Both the position numbers and the translations under genes were made by a program. From positions 77,378 to 141,377 of the forward strand of contig CAYRRP010000003.1 of assembly GCA_964426735.1 (NCBI GenBank): DNA of 64,000 nt, read 5' to 3'. Positions within the stretch are counted from its first letter, which is position 1; the number at the start of each line of letters is the position of its first letter. Shown here in pieces: positions 1-41,393 of the stretch. The stretch is from an uncultured Candidatus Saccharibacteria bacterium. Its GTDB lineage: Bacteria; Patescibacteriota; Minisyncoccia; Phycocordibacterales; DATDWN01. The notes under the pieces are model-generated. The model worked only from the letters and a program-made list of their open reading frames with translations, had not been told where the DNA came from and did not search any database.

Positions 1-1075
1 CTTTCTCTCCTGTTGTTGAGTTATAGATATATGAACCTGATTCTACAGTACCTGAGTACACACGGAAGAATGTCAGCTGTCCTACGAATGGGTCTGTCTG
101 GAGTTTGAAGGCAAGCGCAGCAAACGGTTCTTCATCAGACGCTTTTCGAGTAATCTCATCACCGGTTACTGGATCTGTTCCATGTACTGGTGGAATATCG
201 AGTGGACAAGGGAGATAGTCTACCACTGCATCAAGTACGAGCTGTACACCTTTGTTTTTAAGTGCTGAACCAGTAAATACAGGGAAAAGTTTGTTTGCAA
301 TAACCGCTTTTCGAATCACCGCTTTCAATTCATCAATTGAAAATTCTTTTCCTTCGAGATATCCAGACATCATTGCATCATCAAACTCCACTGCTTTTTC
401 TACAAGCTCTGCTCGATATTTGGTTGCGTCTGCCATGTATTCAGCAGGAATTTCTGCTTCTCTAATAGAGTTACCCATATCACCTTCAAAGTAATATGCT
501 TTCATCTTCAAAAGATCGATTACCGCTTCAAAGTTTGATTCTTCTCCAATTGGAAGCTGCATTCGCACTGCGTTTTTGTTGAGTCGCTCTACGATTGATT
601 TAAATGATCGGTCAAACGATCCTCCTGTTCGGTCAAGTTTGTTGATGAAACAGATTCGAGGTACGTGATATTTATCAGCTTGTCGCCATACAGTCTCAGA
701 CTGAGGCTCCACACCTGCCACACCGTCAAATACTACCACTCCACCGTCAAGCACCTTCAATGATCGCTCCACCTCTACGGTAAAGTCCACGTGACCAGGA
801 GTGTCGATGATATTGAATCGCTGTTTCTTTGATGTATTCGTACCCATATATGTTGGATTCCAGAAACAGGTAATAGCCGCAGCAGTGATCGTAATACCAC
901 GCTCTTTTTCCTGTTCCATCCAGTCAGTGGTTGCTGCACCATCGTGCACCTCACCGATTTTGTGAGACATACCTGTGTAATACAGGATACGTTCTGATGT
1001 AGTAGTCTTACCTGCATCAATGTGAGCAATAATACCGAAGTTTCGTACTCTCTCGAGTGGATAATCGCGATTCAT
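1..1075 (-). CDS. fusA: Elongation factor G, N-terminal ~358 aa (gene continues beyond the left window edge)
   Basis: Absent from the ORF track because its stop lies outside the window. Manual translation from ATG 1075 gives [35 protein letters not shown]...[20 protein letters not shown] (GTPase G1 AHIDAGKT, G3 DTPGH). It follows rpsL-rpsG as in str operons. Confidence 0.95.
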
Positions 1076-1185
1076 ATATAAAATGATTAATGATTAAGTT
1101 GTACCTTATAAAAATCAACACGAAAAACCGTGAGATGATTTAATACCCCAAACTATATACTAAAAGTGCCCTGTGGGCAACTTAG

Positions 1186-1214
1186 TTGACATATATTTTG
1201 TACATGTTTAAATA
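1186..1214 (+). promoter_or_regulatory. Sigma70-like promoter TTGACA-17-TAAATA, antisense to the str operon
   Basis: TTGACA 1186-1191, 17-nt spacer, TAAATA 1209-1214. The expected start is about 6-7 nt downstream at A1221. Confidence 0.5.
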
Positions 1215-1220
1215 GTCTTC

Positions 1221-1503
1221 ATGCCTGTTCTTTCAACAACCACCCCCTCAGAGACAGTGTCTTTCGCTACAGACGAAGAAGCTTGGTACAATGGGAATCG
1301 CGTATTCATCGTCATGGAGGTAAGTCGCCGACTCAGACCCAACGAGCCCTCTTACAAAGTCCGCAAAGGACTCACCACCTTCACGGTCTCGCACAGCGAG
1401 CTCTCCCGGACAAGGCACTAGCACCTATTTCTCCAACCTCGCCTCCCCTTTACCGGGGAGGCGTCAACTTATACAAAAAGCACCCCGAGAAGGGTGTTTT
1501 TTT
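1221..1503 (+). ncRNA. Candidate ~280-nt structured RNA of unknown family (alternative: leaderless 66-aa ORF 1221..1421)
   Basis: Bounded by the promoter above and an intrinsic terminator. By eye it is clearly more GC-rich than its flanks. It has several perfect hairpins (GCCUCCCC/GGGGAGGC 1441-1462, GUCC/GGAC, CUCGC/GCGAG, GACGAAGAA/UUCAUCGUC). One G.U pair is tolerated only on the + strand. Confidence 0.4.
1475..1503 (+). terminator. Intrinsic terminator (usable in both directions)
   Basis: CACCC-cgagaa-GGGTG followed by T7 on the + strand. An A-run upstream gives CTTTTTGT on the minus strand after rpsG. Confidence 0.7.
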
Positions 1504-1630
1504 ATCTGGGTGAGGATTTTTGTTCGAGTTCGAAGGACGGAACTTTTCTCTTGACCAAGATGTAGATTGACTACTTCGCGGGAAAGAGAAAAGTGAGTAC
1601 CGAAGAAATCGGACAAAAAGACCAGCCAGA

Positions 1631-2101
1631 TTACCAGGCGAAGTGAGCAAACGCTTTGTTGGCTTCAGCCATCTTATGAGTGTTTTCTCGTTTCTTTACT
1701 GCTTCACCTTCATTTTTAGCTGCAAGCATGATTTCTTCCGCAAGCTTTTCTGCCATAGGAGAACCTTTTTTAGATCGAGCTGCTTCTACAATCCATTTCA
1801 TTGAAAGATAGTTTCGTCGCTCAGGTCGAACTTCTCGAGGGATTTGGTAGTTTGCACCTCCCACTCGTCGTGATCGTACTTCCATCAAAGGACCTGTGTT
1901 TTTGAGTGCTGTATCAAACACTTCCATAGGATCCTCTACCTTTGCCTTTTCTTTAATATTTTCGAGTGCACCGTATACGATACCTCGCGCAGTCTCCTTC
2001 TGACCTCGTTCCATTACATAGTTAATAAACTTAGAGATTTTCTCTGAGTTATATACGTGGTCGGGAGACACCATATTTCGATTTGTTACTTTTCGTCGCA
2101 T
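1631..2101 (-). CDS. rpsG: 30S ribosomal protein S7
   Basis: 156 aa, with ...RSRRVGGANYQIPREVRPERR...KKRENTHKMAEANKAFAHF typical of S7. Located in the str operon. Confidence 0.97.
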   Translation of the reverse strand: MRRKVTNRNMVSPDHVYNSEKISKFINYVMERGQKETARGIVYGALENIKEKAKVEDPMEVFDTALKNTGPLMEVRSRRVGGANYQIPREVRPERRNYLSMKWIVEAARSKKGSPMAEKLAEEIMLAAKNEGEAVKKRENTHKMAEANKAFAHFAW

Positions 2102-2181: not shown

Positions 2182-2607
2182 TTATTTTTTAGCTGCTCCA
2201 CCTTTAGCTTTCTTAGCACCGTATCGACTTCGAGATTTACCTCGTTTGTCTACACCAGTCGCATCGAGTACACCTCGAACGATCTGATATCGAAGTCCTA
2301 CGTCTTTTACCTTTCCACCTCGGAGCATTACCACTGAGTGTTCCTGAAGTGTGTGACCCATACCTGGGATGTACGCAGTAACTTCCATACCGTTTGAAAG
2401 TCTTACTCGGGCAATCTTTCGAATCGCTGAGTTAGGCTTCTTTGGAGTCTTTGTGGTTACTTTTGTACAAACCCCTCGTTTAAAAGGTGATGAATAAAAA
2501 ATAGGTCGGTTCTTAAGTACGTTAAAACCGCGAGTAAGCGCAACAGAGCGCACTTTTCGCTTTACGTTTGAACGGCTTTTCTTTACTAATTGATTTATCG
2601 TTGACAT
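2182..2607 (-). CDS. rpsL: 30S ribosomal protein S12
   Basis: 141 aa, with [19 protein letters not shown]...[21 protein letters not shown], the S12 signature. Confidence 0.97.
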
Positions 2608-2741: not shown

Positions 2742-2796
2742 CTGGTCCGCCTCGGATTTCAATCAAATCTGAACATCCTCCGAGTTAAACTTATAC

Positions 2797-2843
2797 AAAA
2801 AAAGCCTTGTGCAGGAGGGAGCAAAGCTCCCTCCCACAACAAG
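2797..2843 (-). terminator. Intrinsic terminator downstream of the M50 protease gene
   Basis: Perfect 9-bp stem GGAGGGAGC-aaa-GCTCCCTCC (2813-2834), extended by CTTGTG/CACAAG. It is followed by T7 on the minus strand. Confidence 0.7.
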
Positions 2844-2915
2844 ACATCGATTTTTTCCGACCTTTAAGGGTCAGGCCTCCCGCAATCGTAGTTAGGAGGC
2901 TATTATAACATACAT

Positions 2916-2974
2916 AACCGAAGAACCGAAGAACCGAAGAACCGAAGAACCGAAGAACCGAAGAACCGATGAAC
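2916..2974. repeat. Tandem 8-bp repeat (AACCGAAG), 6 exact copies plus a degenerate seventh
   Basis: Direct reading: aaccgaag repeated from 2916 and ending aaccgatgaac. It produces the spurious ORF 2791..2979 (FGSSVLRFFGSSVLRF). Confidence 0.95.
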
Positions 2975-3050
2975 TGCACAGTGCAGACTGAGAGCTTCAG
3001 ATGAAGCTTTCTGCAAAGAATAGTACACCCCCCTCAAAATTTGTCAAGTG

Positions 3051-5577: not shown

Positions 5578-6171
5578 ATGAAAACATTTGAAGAAATGAA
5601 ATTTAATATCGGCGAGCTTATCGGTATTTCTACCGACTCAGTTACCGAACACCTCAAGCTCTACGCTGGATATGTAAAACATGCCAACCTTATCATTTCT
5701 AAAATCGAAGAAATGAGTAAAGATTCAGAAACAAATGCATATGCACTTGGCGAGCTTCAACGACGTTTTGGTTTTGAATTTGATGGTATGAGAAATCACG
5801 AATATTATTTCAAATCACTCGTTGGTGGTGCAACAGCAATCACCGAAGGTGGCGCGCTTCATACTGCAATCGTTGAAGAATTCGGTTCGTTTGATGCATG
5901 GTTTGCACGTTTTAAAGCAGTAGCACTCACTCGTGGTATTGGCTGGGCAATGCTCTACTACGATAAAACAACTGGACGACTTTTAAATGCATGGGTAGAC
6001 GAACAACACCTCGGACATCTCACCGGACTCTCACCTATTCTTGCGCTTGATGTATGGGAACATGCATTTGTACCTGACTACAAAGCATCTGGGAAAAAAG
6101 CATACGTTGAAGATTTTTTCAAAAATCTCAATTGGTCTGTGATTGAAGAAAATTTCAAAAACGCACAATAG
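5578..6171 (+). CDS. Fe/Mn superoxide dismutase family protein (divergent N-terminus)
   Basis: DVWEHAF and MRNHEYYF ligand motifs are present. Only one His lies in the usual HHxKHH region. Confidence 0.8.
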   Translation: MKTFEEMKFNIGELIGISTDSVTEHLKLYAGYVKHANLIISKIEEMSKDSETNAYALGELQRRFGFEFDGMRNHEYYFKSLVGGATAITEGGALHTAIVEEFGSFDAWFARFKAVALTRGIGWAMLYYDKTTGRLLNAWVDEQHLGHLTGLSPILALDVWEHAFVPDYKASGKKAYVEDFFKNLNWSVIEENFKNAQ

Positions 6172-6473
6172 TTGACTTGTGGCGTGTTTATATATAGTCT
6201 CTACTATAGACTATGCAGGATTTTCATTTTTACAACATCTTGCTCGAGTTTATGTTGAGAGGACCGGTAAATGTCGCAGCACCTTGTACACCTGTGGTCG
6301 ACCCTTTCTCGACTATCCTCGAGGATGCAGTCTCCGCAGTAAATACGTGCATCCAAAAAACCCCTCTTAACAAACAAGAAAAACAACATAACACATCCCG
6401 TCGACGAGCATTACGCGAAAGTCGAGGGAGGGTTTACAGAAAACTCTGACACATGATGTGTTGGAGTTTTTTC
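6172..6473 (+). ncRNA. Candidate ~270-nt RNA of unknown family (TAG-TTGACT promoter to intrinsic terminator)
   Basis: TTGACT 6172-6177 lies directly after the SOD stop, with -10 candidates TATAGT/TAGTCT at 6193-6200. A GC-richer structured interior ends at a strand-specific terminator. Confidence 0.35.
6444..6473 (+). terminator. Intrinsic terminator, + strand specific
   Basis: CUCUGACAC-augau-GUGUUGGAG is a 9-bp stem with two G.U pairs that would be C.A mismatches on the other strand. It is followed by UUUUUUCUU. Confidence 0.75.
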
Positions 6474-26807: not shown

Positions 26808-27878
26808 ATGGCTAAAAAAGATTACACAAACATTGTAGTGCACAAACTCCCCCAACAAGAAGTAGAAATTACTGGTGAAATTACTGTAGAAAAAATGGAT
26901 TCGATGCGAAAAAAAGCAATCGAATCACTTAAGAAAGAAATCACTCTTCCTGGATTTCGAAAAGGTACTGCACCTGAAAACCTTGTAATACAGCAGATTG
27001 GTGAAGTGAAAATACTTGAGGAAGCAGGAGAGCTTGCACTCGGTGAAGTATATCCTGATATTCTCGAAGATGAGAAACTTGATCCTCTTGGTAAACCAGA
27101 GGTAACTATCACGAAGATTGGTGTTGGTAGTGCCCTTGGTTTTAAGATCAAAACAGCACTGATGCCTGAAGTGAAAATCGGTAATTATAAAAAAATCGCC
27201 CAGAAAGTCTATGCAAAAGAAGTAGCTGTAGAAGTCACAGATAAAGATATTGAGGACGTCATCCTCAATCTTCGAAAAAATGTTGCTCATGCAAAACTCC
27301 ATGAAGAAGGTGGATATGATGAACACGATCACTCTCACGGAGAAATCAAAGATGAAGATTTACCAGAAGTAAATGATGATTTCTTAAAACAGATTGGTGA
27401 GTTTGCATCAGTTGAAGATTTAAAAGAAAAAATAAAAGAAAATCTCCTTAAAGAAAAAACTTTTAAAGCAAAAGATAAAAAACGAACAGAAACACTTGAA
27501 GAAATTATTAATGCATCAACAATTGAAATTCCCCAGATCTTGATTGATGGAGAGCTTGATCGAATGAAAGCTCAGTTTGAGGATGATTTGGCACAATCAG
27601 GTATTACACTTACAAACTACCTCTCATACGCAAAGAAAACAGAGGACGACCTCAAGGCTGATTGGAAAGATACGGCAATCAAACGAGCAAAATCTCAAAT
27701 CATTCTTAATACTATTGCAAAAGAAGAGAGCATCACACCTGACGAAGCGATGATAAAAACGGAAATGGAAAAAATCCTCGCACACCACAAAGATGCAGAA
27801 CGTTTCCGTGTACGAATGTATGTGGAAACATTTCTCACCAATGATTTGGTGTTTAAGTTTCTTGAGGAGCAGAAATAG
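26808..27878 (+). CDS. tig: Trigger factor lacking the FKBP/PPIase domain
   Basis: 356 aa. It has the ribosome-binding signature LPGFRKGTAP and TF N- and C-domains. A short His-rich linker (HEEGGYDEHDHSHGEIKDED) sits where the PPIase domain belongs. Confidence 0.85.
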   Translation: MAKKDYTNIVVHKLPQQEVEITGEITVEKMDSMRKKAIESLKKEITLPGFRKGTAPENLVIQQIGEVKILEEAGELALGEVYPDILEDEKLDPLGKPEVTITKIGVGSALGFKIKTALMPEVKIGNYKKIAQKVYAKEVAVEVTDKDIEDVILNLRKNVAHAKLHEEGGYDEHDHSHGEIKDEDLPEVNDDFLKQIGEFASVEDLKEKIKENLLKEKTFKAKDKKRTETLEEIINASTIEIPQILIDGELDRMKAQFEDDLAQSGITLTNYLSYAKKTEDDLKADWKDTAIKRAKSQIILNTIAKEESITPDEAMIKTEMEKILAHHKDAERFRVRMYVETFLTNDLVFKFLEEQK

Positions 27879-28038
27879 TTGACGAAAAAGTAAGAGTATC
27901 TTATTCTTAGTTTAGACTTGCTCCCGCAGAGTAAGACCGCTTGATTCAGGAGGTGAAGAGGAAGAGACGCAAAAATAGCGAGCCCCTATTGGACGTGGGG
28001 GTGAAAAAGCGAAGGATGTTATGAACCCTTCGCTTTTT
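27879..28038 (+). ncRNA. Candidate ~125-nt sRNA (TAG-TTGACG promoter to intrinsic terminator)
   Basis: TTGACG 27879-27884, 17-nt spacer, TATTCT 27902-27907. The terminator is AAGCGAAGG-loop-CCTTCGCTT + TTT (28007-28038). The interior contains AGGAGGUGA. Confidence 0.35.
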
Positions 28039-28091
28039 ATATTGACTTATTTTTACCACTCGAGTAACCCTGGAGCTTACTACCTTTTATA

Positions 28092-28799
28092 TTACATTCC
28101 CAAAAGCACAGCTCCAGCGATTGCTGCTGTCTCTGCTCGCAAAATACGAGGTCCAAGTGCAAACCCTGCAACATTGTATTGTCTAAAGAGTGCGATTTCT
28201 TCATCACTAAAACCTCCTTCTGGACCAATAAAATAAGCAAATGAATACTGGTTTGTGTGTGCAGATAGATATTGCTGTATCGGAGGAAACTCGGGATGAA
28301 AAAATATTTTTTCTTGAGGAAGCACACCACGTTCAAACAGTTTTGGTAGTGTAGTCAGTTCATGTACTGTGAGCAATTCCCCTCTTCCCGACTGTTCTGT
28401 TGCCTCTTGAACAATCTTTTGCAATCGCTCCATATTGAGTTTTTTCTTTTCACTTCGTTCACCAACAATAGGAACAATATGACTCACACCGAGCTCCACT
28501 GCTTTTTGTACCACCAATTCAACATTATCTTTTTTAATAAGCGAAAGGCATAGCCAAATATTTTTTATAGGCGCTGCGATTTCTTTTGTTTCAAGGATTG
28601 AAAGTTCTGCTTCAGACGGAGAAACTTTTGCAATCACTGCTCGACACTCAATACCTGAACCATCAAATACAATCACCTGACTTCCTACATTATATCGAAA
28701 GACCTTTCGCCATTGGTGAATCAGGTCTCTGTTAGAGATATGTATACTTTTTTCCTTTTCAACTATTTTTTCAGTTATATAAAATCGATGGAGTCTCAT
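28092..28799 (-). CDS. rsmE: 16S rRNA (uracil1498-N3)-methyltransferase RsmE
   Basis: It starts MRLHRFY, with HIVPIVGERSE and GPEGGFSDEE motifs. The start is set at ATG 28799, which is internal to the track ORF. Confidence 0.85.
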   Translation of the reverse strand: MRLHRFYITEKIVEKEKSIHISNRDLIHQWRKVFRYNVGSQVIVFDGSGIECRAVIAKVSPSEAELSILETKEIAAPIKNIWLCLSLIKKDNVELVVQKAVELGVSHIVPIVGERSEKKKLNMERLQKIVQEATEQSGRGELLTVHELTTLPKLFERGVLPQEKIFFHPEFPPIQQYLSAHTNQYSFAYFIGPEGGFSDEEIALFRQYNVAGFALGPRILRAETAAIAGAVLLGM

Positions 28800-31669: not shown

Positions 31670-31942
31670 ATGAATAAAGCATCATTGGTAGACGCAGTAT
31701 ATGCAGAGCTCGGTGGTACAAAAGTACAGGCTGAGAAAGTGGTTGATATTATTATCGACAACATTGTTGCTACTTTGAAAAAAGGTGGTGAAGTGTCTAT
31801 CGCGGGTCTTGGTATCTTTTCAACAAAAACTCGAGCGGCTCGACAGGCTCGAAACCCACGAACAGGTGAATCAATCTCTGTTCCTGCAATGAAAGTTCCT
31901 AAATTCCGCGCAGCTAAGGGTCTTAAGGACGCCGTAAAATAA
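31670..31942 (+). CDS. hup: DNA-binding protein HU
   Basis: MNKASLVDAVYAELGG...GLGIFSTKTRAARQARNPRTGESISVPAMKVPKFRAAKGLKDAV. The start is set at ATG 31670. Confidence 0.92.
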   Translation: MNKASLVDAVYAELGGTKVQAEKVVDIIIDNIVATLKKGGEVSIAGLGIFSTKTRAARQARNPRTGESISVPAMKVPKFRAAKGLKDAVK

Positions 31943-32158
31943 TAAAATCCATATTTGGTGAATTTCTTTGTTGCTTCACCTTTTTCTCTCCCGCGCAGTA
32001 CTCTTGTACAACTTGGTCAAGAAAAAGGTTTGTGCCTCAAACTTCACTCAAATCTGAAATTTTCTTACGTTTTATTCTCTAGAGAATATCAAAAAACACT
32101 CCAACCGGGGTGTTTTTTGATTACAAAAAGCCCACCAACATGGCTCTTTGTTGGTGGG

Positions 32159-33094: not shown

Positions 33095-33153
33095 GTGGTA
33101 AGTATACCAAATTATTTAGCCAAATTAGTAGGAAGAAAGTTAGAAATTTCCAC

Positions 33154-33301
33154 TGGTGCGGGTGGGGAGAATCGGTCACGAGTAATTCTGGTTCCGTCGA
33201 ACCAGAATTCTCTCGACCCCGACTCGCGACCCACTCTGGTGAGCGGGTGCCCCCGCTCCGTCTTTCGATTCCCCATGCAAAGCTCTGCTTTGCTCACCCG
33301 C
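33154..33301 (-). ncRNA. tRNA-flanking structured element, copy R4 (unknown family), with tRNA-Gly-like acceptor ends and an encoded CCA
   Basis: 5' GCGGGUG and 3' CACCCGCA-CCA pair like the neighbouring tRNA-Gly acceptor stem. The interior is homologous to 37390-37496 and 37148-37275, with covarying hairpins. Confidence 0.6.
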
Positions 33302-33353
33302 ACACATATCAAAAAACCGGCATAAAACCGGTTTTTTGATATGTGTGCGGGTG
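33295..33353. repeat. 26-bp perfect inverted repeat joining the tRNA-Gly 3' end to element R4
   Basis: CACCCGCACACATATCAAAAAACCGG (33295-33320), a 7-nt loop, then the exact reverse complement (33328-33353). The inner part is an A6CCGG/CCGGT6 terminator-like hairpin. Confidence 0.95.
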
Positions 33354-33416
33354 GGGAGAATCGAACTCCCGTATACTGCTTGGAAGGCAGTCATTCTACC
33401 ACTAAATTACACCCGC
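33346..33416 (-). tRNA. tRNA-Gly (anticodon UCC)
   Basis: GCGGGTGTAATTTAGTGGTAGAATGACTGCCTTCCAAGCAGTATACGGGAGTTCGATTCTCCCCACCCGCA. This is a 71-nt cloverleaf with anticodon loop CTTCCAA. Confidence 0.95.
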
Positions 33417-39018: not shown

Positions 39019-39030
39019 TTCTGCAAATAA

Positions 39031-39139
39031 GTTAAACTGCTTCAGATGCTAGGCGCGAGAGAATTTGTGAGTGAGTTGTACTTGTCGTACGGTGAGCGAA
39101 CAAATTTGAATCGCAACAACGCAGATGGAGTAATTTAAC
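39031..39139. repeat. Imperfect-palindrome intergenic element (close copy of 40303-40409)
   Basis: GTTAAACTGCTTCAGATGCTAGGCGCGAGAG...TTGTAC-TTGTC-GTACGG...CAACGCAGATGGAGTAATTTAAC. Confidence 0.7.
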
Positions 39140-39497
39140 TTATTTAACAACAAAAAACCGCCCAAGGTGGCGTCATTTGTCGCAAAGACGGCTCACGGGC
39201 GGCTAAAGAAGTATTTCCCAGCAAGAATAAGGATTTGATAAATATCTCAATCTTAAAATATATAGTAGATAGTGTAGATATGTATATCTCTTGTCCTATC
39301 GAACCAAGAAACCTTCATGGGGGAGAACCTGCAGATTCTCAAATGTACAAACGCACAACTTTATGTGTAAAGAACTTTAAACGACAGAATTGTTTGTTTC
39401 TTTTTTGATGAAACTCTCGATCCTGTTCTGGAGTAACTATATCAGACAGATAAAAGTCATGTAAAGGACTATGCTGTGGATAACTTTGTCTTATTAA

Positions 39498-40268: not shown

Positions 40269-40302
40269 TACTAAAAGATATTACCACACCTTGAATGAAG
40301 AA

Positions 40303-40409
40303 GTTAAATTGCTCCAGATGCTAGGCGCGAGAAAATTTATGAGTGAACCGTACTTGTAGTACGGTGAATGAATAAATTTGAATCGTAACAACGCAGATGG
40401 AGTAATTTA
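40303..40409. repeat. Imperfect-palindrome intergenic element (close copy of 39031-39139)
   Basis: It is in the same orientation as 39031-39139. I counted 12 mismatches over about 107 aligned nt by hand. Its right end overlaps the stop codon of the recombinase gene. Confidence 0.7.
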
Positions 40410-41393
40410 CTTCTTTCCGTGAAATTTCTTGTGAATGTCACGCAGGTGCTTGTCGGTTACGTGTGTATAAATCTGGGTCGTAATAATGCTCGAATGACCC
40501 AACAAAGCCTGAACTGAGCGAATATCTGCTCCGTTTGAAAGTAAATCAGTCGCAAAGAGATGACGCATGGTGTGCGGTGTTACACGTTTTGAAATACCTG
40601 CTTTGATTGCATATTGTTTGATGATGCGCTCTATTGTCCGTTTGGTCAGGGGACTTGCTTCTTTACTAGTAATTTCTCGCCCTACCTGCACAAAAAGAGC
40701 ATCATTCATATCTTTACGGAGAGACAAGTACGCCTTGAGACAATTTTTTGCAGTATCTGAAAGAAATACTACTCGCACCTTTCCTCCTTTTCCTCGAATA
40801 GAAAGTTCATCGGAAGTCAGATCAATATCAGACGTGAGGGAACAGAGCTCAGAAACACGCAAACCTGTTGAAAATAATAATTCGAGAATTGCTTTGTCAC
40901 GAACTGTCTTCAAATCACTACCTTTAGGAGCATCGAGAAGGCGAGCGAGCTCATTTTCTGTAATAAGATCAAGAAGACGCTCTCCAGTTTTTGCAAGGTC
41001 GATACGCTCAGGCGCAAGAGAAGTGACACCTTCTCGAGCAAGAAACTTGAGAAACGCCCGGAGTGCAATCAGGTGATAGTTTTGAGTTTTTTTAGAAAGA
41101 GTATTTTTTTTGGCTTTATCAAGTCCTGAAAGTTGTCTGTTGAGCCACAAACGAAACTCTCGTACCACCATATCGGTGATATCTCCTGGTTTTGAAGCTT
41201 TTGTTTGCTCAAGAAAGCGTACAAGGTAATGTAAATAGTTTTGCCGAGTCTGGATAGATCGCCCTCTTTCTATTTCAAGATAGTTGAGAAAATCACGAAG
41301 AAAACGCCCTAAGGGGGTTTTCGGTATTCTTTCTTCTTCTGTCAAAGCAGGTTTGCGTTTAGACGTCTCTTTTTTAATCTTTTCCTCTGCCAT
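40407..41393 (-). CDS. Tyrosine recombinase, XerC/XerD-like
   Basis: 328 aa. It carries TGLRVSEL, HTMRHLFAT and LGHSSIITTQIYTHV (R-H-R-Y catalytic set). Confidence 0.9.
   Translation of the reverse strand: MAEEKIKKETSKRKPALTEEERIPKTPLGRFLRDFLNYLEIERGRSIQTRQNYLHYLVRFLEQTKASKPGDITDMVVREFRLWLNRQLSGLDKAKKNTLSKKTQNYHLIALRAFLKFLAREGVTSLAPERIDLAKTGERLLDLITENELARLLDAPKGSDLKTVRDKAILELLFSTGLRVSELCSLTSDIDLTSDELSIRGKGGKVRVVFLSDTAKNCLKAYLSLRKDMNDALFVQVGREITSKEASPLTKRTIERIIKQYAIKAGISKRVTPHTMRHLFATDLLSNGADIRSVQALLGHSSIITTQIYTHVTDKHLRDIHKKFHGKK

Follow-up and report, generated by a model that had tools for sequence, protein, structure and literature searches.

The 555 bp that separate the structural genes for ribosomal protein S7 (rpsG) and elongation factor EF-G (fusA) in contig CAYRRP010000003.1, part of a genome of the Patescibacteria (Parcubacteria/Paceibacteria), harbor, antisense to the str operon, a unit of promoter, open reading frame (ORF), and terminator (positions 1186-1503) which comparisons with related genomes identify, with a probability that we put at about 0.88, as an independently transcribed small-protein gene. 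The window denotes throughout the whole stretch of 64,000 nt that was analyzed, and the numbers L001-L091 refer to the related genomes or loci with which it was compared. The original prediction had taken the same unit for a structured RNA and had mentioned a leaderless ORF of 66 codons (1221-1421) as an alternative; it is this alternative that is borne out by syntenic homologs, by purifying selection at the codon level, and by a conserved geometry of promoter and ATG. What had been a candidate for a novel RNA turns out to be of a more ordinary kind: a protein gene that is small, leaderless, and unannotated.

When 1.84 billion representative proteins are searched exhaustively with HMMER, two small proteins that align over nearly their whole length are retrieved, P0001 (E = 8.9e-8, query residues 1-66 covered, 48% identity by BLASTP) and P0002 (E = 2.1e-6, 39% identity by BLASTP). 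Their genes, from L082 and L083, respectively, are located antisense between fusA and rpsG, matching the arrangement of the window. P0001 has been called with an N-terminal extension of 12 residues, which is translated promoter, and its true start is likely the conserved Met-13 (MPVLS). Gene callers mostly overlook the small gene, which is annotated in two assemblies only, in one of them with a wrong start. In the codon alignment of the window ORF with that of L082, the synonymous divergence (dS) is 1.14 and the nonsynonymous divergence (dN) 0.34, and the resulting dN/dS of about 0.3 is the kind of codon-level evolution that had been named beforehand as favoring the ORF; differences at codon positions 1, 2, and 3 amount to 17, 21, and 30, an excess at third positions. 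A word-index protein search with the 66-residue sequence gave no match, and a profile of four sequences returned just P0001 and P0002. The 66-residue protein, whose predicted tryptic peptides include VFIVMEVSR and GLTTFTVSHSELSR, represents a new family of small proteins, a very rare one, whose gene has a familiar format. At the level of sequence, the genome comparisons demonstrate coding status, synteny, purifying selection, conservation of the promoter-ATG geometry, and a replacement of the ORF body that is described below.

All elements that had been proposed for the 5' end of the unit are present, namely TTGACA and TAAATA at a distance of 17 nt and A1221 opening an ATG. As a promoter they are backed by conservation across relatives but not by a consensus scan, which made no call because TAAATA and the overlapping TTAAAT each lack A2 and T6 together; the support for this promoter is therefore conservation and not consensus. 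Eight spacers with a unit in the same orientation were compared (window, L002, L003, L004, L010, L082, L083, and L084), and all of them contain TTGAC(A/T), 16-18 nt, a T-T-n-A-A-T-A block, 6-7 nt, and ATG, followed by a frame that stays open for 61-95 codons and by a GC-rich hairpin beyond the stop codon. Between the genomes, codon 2 (CCT, CCC, or CCA) and codon 5 (TCA or TCT) show synonymous changes. An in-frame stop codon at 1209-1211 makes ATG 1221 the earliest possible start, and no Shine-Dalgarno (SD) motif is found upstream of it (GGAG, GAGG, and AGGA are all absent), so that the ORF, with its -10 box 6-7 nt before the ATG, displays the layout expected of a leaderless gene (a -10 box 5-9 nt before the start codon and no SD). 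A sigma-70-type promoter (TTGACA, 16-17 nt, TTAAAT/TAAATA) would start transcription at or beside A1221, and the ribosome would begin on the 5'-terminal AUG of an mRNA devoid of a 5' leader and of an SD; for the exact transcription start and for leaderless translation, this is what we infer. The other genes of the window point in the same direction, as an SD-like 4-mer occurs in just 3 of 53 genes, and TANNNT ends 5-8 nt before the ATG in 19 of the 53, versus 8.7% of all ATGs, which suggests that translation in this Parcubacteria genome is initiated mainly on leaderless mRNAs. In the literature on leaderless initiation in Patescibacteria, Parcubacteria, or the candidate phyla radiation (CPR), nothing directly relevant was found. 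Wide leaderless initiation and rare SD sequences would bear on gene-start annotation in CPR genomes.

At the 3' end, the hairpin CACCC-CGAGAA-GGGTG with its T7 tail (1481-1503) is found just where the original prediction had placed the end of the unit. This terminator is predicted to be bidirectional because an A-run flanks the 5' side of the hairpin; in a terminator scan it was called for the - strand only. It is 93% identical between the window and L084, and analogous hairpins exist in L003, L004, L007, and L082. The preceding hairpin 1 is 87% identical between the window and L084 and displays compensatory variants in L082 (GCCTTCCCT/AGGGAAGGC); in most other relatives, a counterpart of hairpin 1 is followed by a T-run. 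According to the arrangement of these signals, transcription of the small gene would head toward rpsG and stop at 1476-1503, the same terminator would probably also end the oncoming rpsL-rpsG transcripts, and fusA would be started anew from its own conserved promoter, back-to-back with that of the small gene. The efficiency of termination at 1476-1503 is a prediction.

According to the headline claim of the original prediction, positions 1221-1503 encode a structured noncoding RNA, about 280 nt long and read in the direction opposite to the str operon; such an RNA might be of the housekeeping type, for instance a divergent RNase P or 6S RNA. The unit is indeed GC-rich and bounded by promoter and terminator, as a whole it folds with a z-score of -2.4, and hairpin 1 has changed in a compensatory manner among relatives. 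However, Rfam contains no matching family, not even when E <= 10 is allowed: the cmscan run that had been suggested as a check, performed on 900-1800, yields at that threshold terminator look-alikes only, the best of them with 21.8 bits versus a gathering score of 55, and at gathering thresholds Rfam identifies 4 tRNAs only in the whole window. The resemblance of one segment to the P4 strand of RNase P was rejected as a chance similarity, there being no Rfam match, and ARAGORN does not detect a tmRNA. The helices that had been listed do exist, but the 210-nt interior (1221-1430) does not fold better than shuffled sequences (z = +0.42; 130 of 200 shuffles fold at least as well), and the helix GACGAAGAA/UUCAUCGUC, described as perfect over 9 bp, contains a central A.A mismatch. 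The z-score of the whole unit appears to be due to the two 3' hairpins, which are terminator-like and are the only conserved structures. The interior is conserved as protein and not as DNA; BLASTN finds no match for the GC-rich interior in 80 species-level relatives, in which the two ends of the spacer do match, synonymous sites are near saturation, and in L084 an unrelated interior is enclosed by near-identical flanks. A structured RNA is therefore very unlikely, and the unit is better understood as the gene for the 66-residue protein.

The case of L084, a metagenome-assembled genome (MAG) of the Parcubacteria with an EF-G 96% identical to that of the window, illustrates that the ORF body is the variable part. 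L084 encodes at this position an unrelated protein of its own, also of 66 residues and beginning with MPSIPVVLL; the ORF bodies of window and L084 are 11% identical, versus 96% for the fusA leader and 99% (126/127) for the palindrome that adjoins rpsG, and rpsG and fusA are 90 and 87% identical, respectively, at the nucleotide level. All-against-all BLASTP comparison of the eight ORFs reveals one family of three (window, L082, and L083) and five singletons, i.e., six unrelated bodies, and profile comparison of the window family with the ORFs of L002, L003, L004, and L010 detects no homology beyond the first 5-8 residues; a single family comprising all ORFs of this position is for that reason not claimed. 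Promoter, terminator, and the initial 2-5 codons are common to the relatives, and their bodies have nothing recognizable in common. Alleles are also shared independently of the flanks, since the closest allele is that of L082 (rpsG 92% identical in nucleotides), and L002 (93%) and L084 (90%) hold other bodies. Most likely, ORF bodies have been replaced by recombination across conserved islands formed by promoter and start on one side and by the terminator on the other. The ORFs at this position are all richer in GC than their own genomes (0.44-0.54 versus 0.41-0.43). A target of a diversity-generating retroelement, which would vary only at adenines of a variable repeat located beside a template repeat and a reverse transcriptase, was considered and rejected, as the bodies differ completely (11% residual identity) and not at scattered positions; a reverse transcriptase was not searched for. 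An integron cassette, which would be promoterless, was rejected as well, as each unit has its own promoter and GTCAACT/GTTAACT after hairpin 1 misfits the attC core GTTRRRY; an integrase was not searched for.

Conserved promoter, first codons, and terminators around unrelated bodies might also mean that the transcript matters and not the protein. Convergent antisense transcription could insulate the fusA promoter from rpsG read-through or cause transcriptional interference, the ORFs being incidental and free to change, and the back-to-back position of the two promoters and the bidirectional terminator would suit such a role. On the other hand, all eight bodies are open for 61-95 codons; the probability of an open frame by chance is 0.008-0.084 per ORF, and multiplied over the six unrelated bodies these values give about 4e-10, so that all ORFs at this position are most likely coding. 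The family of window, L082, and L083 is, furthermore, under purifying selection for amino acids, and for a transcriptional role alone there is no need for the start codon to be fixed where transcription begins. We consider such a purely transcriptional role improbable.

The rpsG-fusA gap is an insertion hotspot in which different relatives (L002-L081, L085-L087) carry unrelated genes on either strand. The statement that rpsG and fusA are normally almost contiguous fails in this clade, where the spacers of 70 related genomes measure between 4 and 2274 bp (median, 336 bp), 33 of them more than 400 bp and 21 of them 100 bp or less. The nearest species-level genomes are MAGs that include UBA910 (L002, S7 99% identical) and several Parcubacteria and Zambryskibacteria bins. 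Occupants of the gap comprise a pilin-like N_methyl protein in L085, RNA-binding proteins of the RRM type, judged by sequence, in L068 and L074, a 23S_rRNA_IVP protein in L087, and membrane proteins in L020 and L023; L091 has an RRM_1 gene upstream of fusA, and rpsG was not found on that stretch. Relatives in which the spacer is short or the gap is taken up by other genes lack the small-gene unit, and it is not present in L085-L090, genomes reached via EF-G homologs, a route that gave one informative genome, L084. In such a permissive hotspot, the unit might be a decaying foreign insert, a pseudogene or spurious ORF with no current function. The extreme rarity of the family would agree with this, and so would its composition; the interior is as GC-rich as had been noticed, with a GC content of 0.54 and a GC content at third codon positions (GC3) of 0.62, versus means of 0.39 and 0.30 for 53 window genes (z = 5.6 and 6.0). 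However, the frame is intact, promoter, terminator, and leaderless geometry are of native style and conserved, dN/dS is low over deeply diverged copies in the same position, and no phage or defense family matches, which makes decay exceedingly unlikely. The composition could reflect foreign origin or some unrecognized constraint.

Several observations weigh against a functional protein gene and have to be set beside the evidence in its favor. With dS near saturation, the value of dN/dS is rough. Only two homologs exist among about 15 billion predicted proteins, and no relatives were found in JGI metagenome contigs, scanned with the single protein and with an alignment of three sequences, nor in viral contigs (IMG/VR), nor by tblastn in phage genomes. 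The GC3 of the ORF lies far beyond the 0.20-0.44 of host genes, the -10 hexamer is non-canonical and escapes the consensus scan, and the five non-homologous ORFs depend on open frames and shared starts, not on homology. The structural model of the protein is of low confidence.

That model, obtained with AlphaFold2 from an alignment of three sequences, has a mean confidence score (pLDDT) of 62.7 and comprises a disordered N-terminus and beta strands at residues 20-24, 27-34, 44-49, and 52-57. The product might thus consist of a disordered tail of about 18 residues, rich in Thr, Ser, and Pro, and of a four-stranded SH3-like beta-barrel, a low-confidence assignment; such a fold is generic and, as modeled, points to no function. 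A signal peptide or membrane segment is not predicted, and there is no significant sequence match in Pfam, PHROG, PADLOC, or PDB. A phage-derived or anti-phage defense protein was considered and rejected, as PHROGs, PADLOC, IMG/VR, and phage tblastn searches with the window protein all remained without a match. Our best guess is a binding protein of the cytoplasm that is accessory and non-essential and evolves under diversifying selection.

The 555 bp, from the fusA start codon (1075-1073, - strand) to the rpsG stop codon (1633-1631), measure what the original prediction had given for 1076-1630, and they can be divided into about 110 bp of fusA promoter and leader, about 320 bp of small-gene cassette, and about 130 bp of a palindrome that abuts the rpsG stop codon (Table 1).

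Table 1. Features in and around the rpsG-fusA spacer and further palindrome copies in the window.
Feature	Positions	Strand	Evidence or remark
fusA (EF-G), 5' part	1-1075	-	Translation; EF-G homologs with Pfam GTP_EFTU domains; gene cut by window edge
Predicted fusA 5' untranslated region, ~70 nt, with small hairpin (1119-1132)	1076-1148	-	Between predicted promoter and fusA ATG
Predicted fusA promoter (17-nt spacing)	TTGCCC 1180-1175; TATAGT 1157-1152	-	Promoter scan
Small-gene promoter	-35 TTGACA 1186-1191; -10 TTAAAT 1208-1213 or TAAATA 1209-1214	+	Conservation
Leaderless ORF, 66 codons + stop: MPVLSTTTPSETVSFATDEEAWYNGNRVFIVMEVSRRLRPNEPSYKVRKGLTTFTVSHSELSRTRH	1221-1421	+	
Hairpin 1, 3' untranslated region: CGCCTCCCC-TTTACC-GGGGAGGCG	1440-1463	+	Perfect 9-bp inverted repeat; no T-run behind it in the window
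Predicted bidirectional intrinsic terminator: A-run, GCACCC-CGAGAA-GGGTG, T7	1476-1503	both	Sequence, minimum free energy fold, scan
Imperfect palindrome, ~130 nt, from rpsG stop codon	1501-1635	-	Fold z-score, covariation, covariance model
Further palindrome copies	31937-32069; 39020-39151; 40291-40418	+; -; -	Covariance model
rpsG (S7)	1631-2101	-	ORF; Pfam Ribosomal_S7
rpsL	2182-2607	-	ORF list

The hairpin that abuts the rpsG stop codon is well supported as a candidate for a new structured element. Fold z-scores of -6.2 and -7.5 are obtained for its - and + strands, respectively. The 64 kb of the window contain 4 good copies and a weaker match at 46202-34, and copies elsewhere include those of L017 (3467-3601 and 3638-3770), L011 (1485-1620), L009 (1513-1644), L003 (4644-4775), and L016 (4351-4485). 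In the nine copies from which a covariance model was built, 25 of 41 pairs covary. An alignment of 24 rows, fitted to the model and including three rows that are reverse-strand self-matches, displays double changes at 32 of the 41 pairs and a covariation score of 0.61 versus 0.17; 88% of its cells pair, versus 62% in shuffles and 36-48% when slid. A cmscan search of 900-1800 at E <= 10 found no Rfam match for the palindrome.

The element follows rpsG directly in at least 13 genomes, fusA in 3, and rpmB (L28) in 2, and it was found after hup and after a xerC-like gene, too. In 19 of 22 matches, a same-strand gene of 86 or more codons has a stop codon that ends at element position 2-12, and the helix begins 0-3 nt past the stop codon. 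Two conserved G.U pairs and the location of the element with respect to stop codons favor the gene-sense strand; folding energy favors the opposite strand in each of the nine copies. Window and L084 are identical at 126 of 127 positions of the element, while the adjoining rpsG is 90% identical. A miniature inverted-repeat transposable element, with TAA at both ends in the window, L041, and L066, was considered and rejected, as the outer stems differ between copies and covary; these stems are not conserved in sequence, and the palindrome is therefore unlike a recently copied mobile element. The sole public contig with an identical S7, the short-read contig L001 (Logan contig SRR14271373_227303), ends 61 nt past the rpsG stop codon and thus halfway through the palindrome, where the inverted repeat has probably broken the assembly. 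If confirmed, the palindrome would represent a previously undescribed class of 3'-end RNA elements in Patescibacteria that follows highly expressed genes (for S7, EF-G, L28, and HU).

Taken together, it is a tentative and somewhat doubtful proposal that the gap is, in this subclade of the Parcubacteria, a dedicated position for variable small proteins and that the adjoining hairpin of about 130 nt defines a new class of 3'-end RNA elements. In that case, one conserved leaderless promoter, one start (M-P-x-L-S), and one terminator would frame at least six mutually unrecognizable bodies of 61-95 codons, and the exchange of these bodies by recombination, with flanks 93-99% identical, would imply that a small cytoplasmic protein is subject to selection of a diversifying or frequency-dependent kind. 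The str operon, usually considered fixed, acts here as a hotspot with different occupants in backgrounds that are nearly identical, and the variable rpsG-fusA position offers a convenient natural system for the study of small-protein turnover.

On the other side of the unit, fusA is probably transcribed from a separate promoter and preceded by a leader of about 70 nt, the transcription start being predicted from the sequence. A block of the -10 region (CTTTTAGTATATAGTT) recurs upstream of fusA in L002, L003, L005, L006, L009-L013, L016, L018, L019, and L082-L084, and the leader, 96% identical between window and L084, contains a hairpin (CACGGTTTTTCGTG) with a T-rich tail that was listed by the terminator scan. 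The -35 elements of fusA and of the small gene are situated back-to-back on opposite strands, 5 bp apart. Upstream of rpsL, at about 2790-3040 and toward an M50 peptidase gene, ORF translations contain repeated FFGSSVLRFFGSSVLR, which implies a short tandem DNA repeat.

The recurrence of TAG-TTGAC at 6172 and 27879, which had been taken to link the unit to two other orphan units, can be ascribed to chance, as TAGTTGAC occurs 4 times where 2.3 are expected and 20 of 100 shuffles reach 4. The first of these promoter-like sites (6169-6450, + strand) is followed by an ORF of 78 codons from 6214 (MQDFHFYNILLEF...). The second (27876-28040, + strand) consists of TTGACG, about 150 nt without a long ORF, and an end formed by a hairpin and a T-run (AAAAGCGAAGG...CCTTCGCTTTTT); a small RNA or a short gene might be encoded there, and an Rfam E-value search of 27850-28100 gave nothing relevant. 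The most GC-rich 200-nt stretch of the window (33148-33345) adjoins a gene for tRNA-Gly (33345-33416, - strand), the 3' end of which, TGCGGGTGGGGAGAATCG, is repeated at 33158 and 33347 and may represent a tRNA fragment or an integration scar.

In the canonical str operon, rpsL, rpsG, fusA, and tufA are co-transcribed and separated by short intergenic gaps. The order rpsL-rpsG-fusA is preserved in the window, whereas a convergent gene and a predicted bidirectional terminator interrupt the operon there, and fusA has a conserved promoter of its own. Leaderless genes are extensive in Mycobacterium, Streptomyces, and Deinococcus and form a "bacterial leaderless" class in gene-start models; Cortes et al. 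reportedly studied transcription start sites in Mycobacterium tuberculosis in 2013. The small gene resembles them in a -10 box located 6-7 nt before the ATG, in the absence of an SD, and in a start codon that coincides with the predicted transcription start, and it differs in that its host belongs to the Parcubacteria/Patescibacteria. Small SH3-like beta-barrels, with five or six strands or, in reduced form, four, occur in SH3, Tudor, and KOW domains, for example in the KOW domains of NusG/RfaH and Spt5, and the model of the 66-residue protein has no sequence similarity to its top matches (2-17% identity). ERIC/IRU sequences are imperfect palindromes of about 127 bp that are present in many copies in transcribed intergenic regions of enterobacteria. 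The element after rpsG has no sequence relation to ERIC but is similar in that it, too, is imperfectly palindromic over about 130 nt, has a conserved core, exists in several copies per genome, and is located just downstream of genes in transcribed regions. Unlike ERIC/IRU, it is kept orthologously after rpsG in at least 13 species-level genomes and has undergone compensatory changes.

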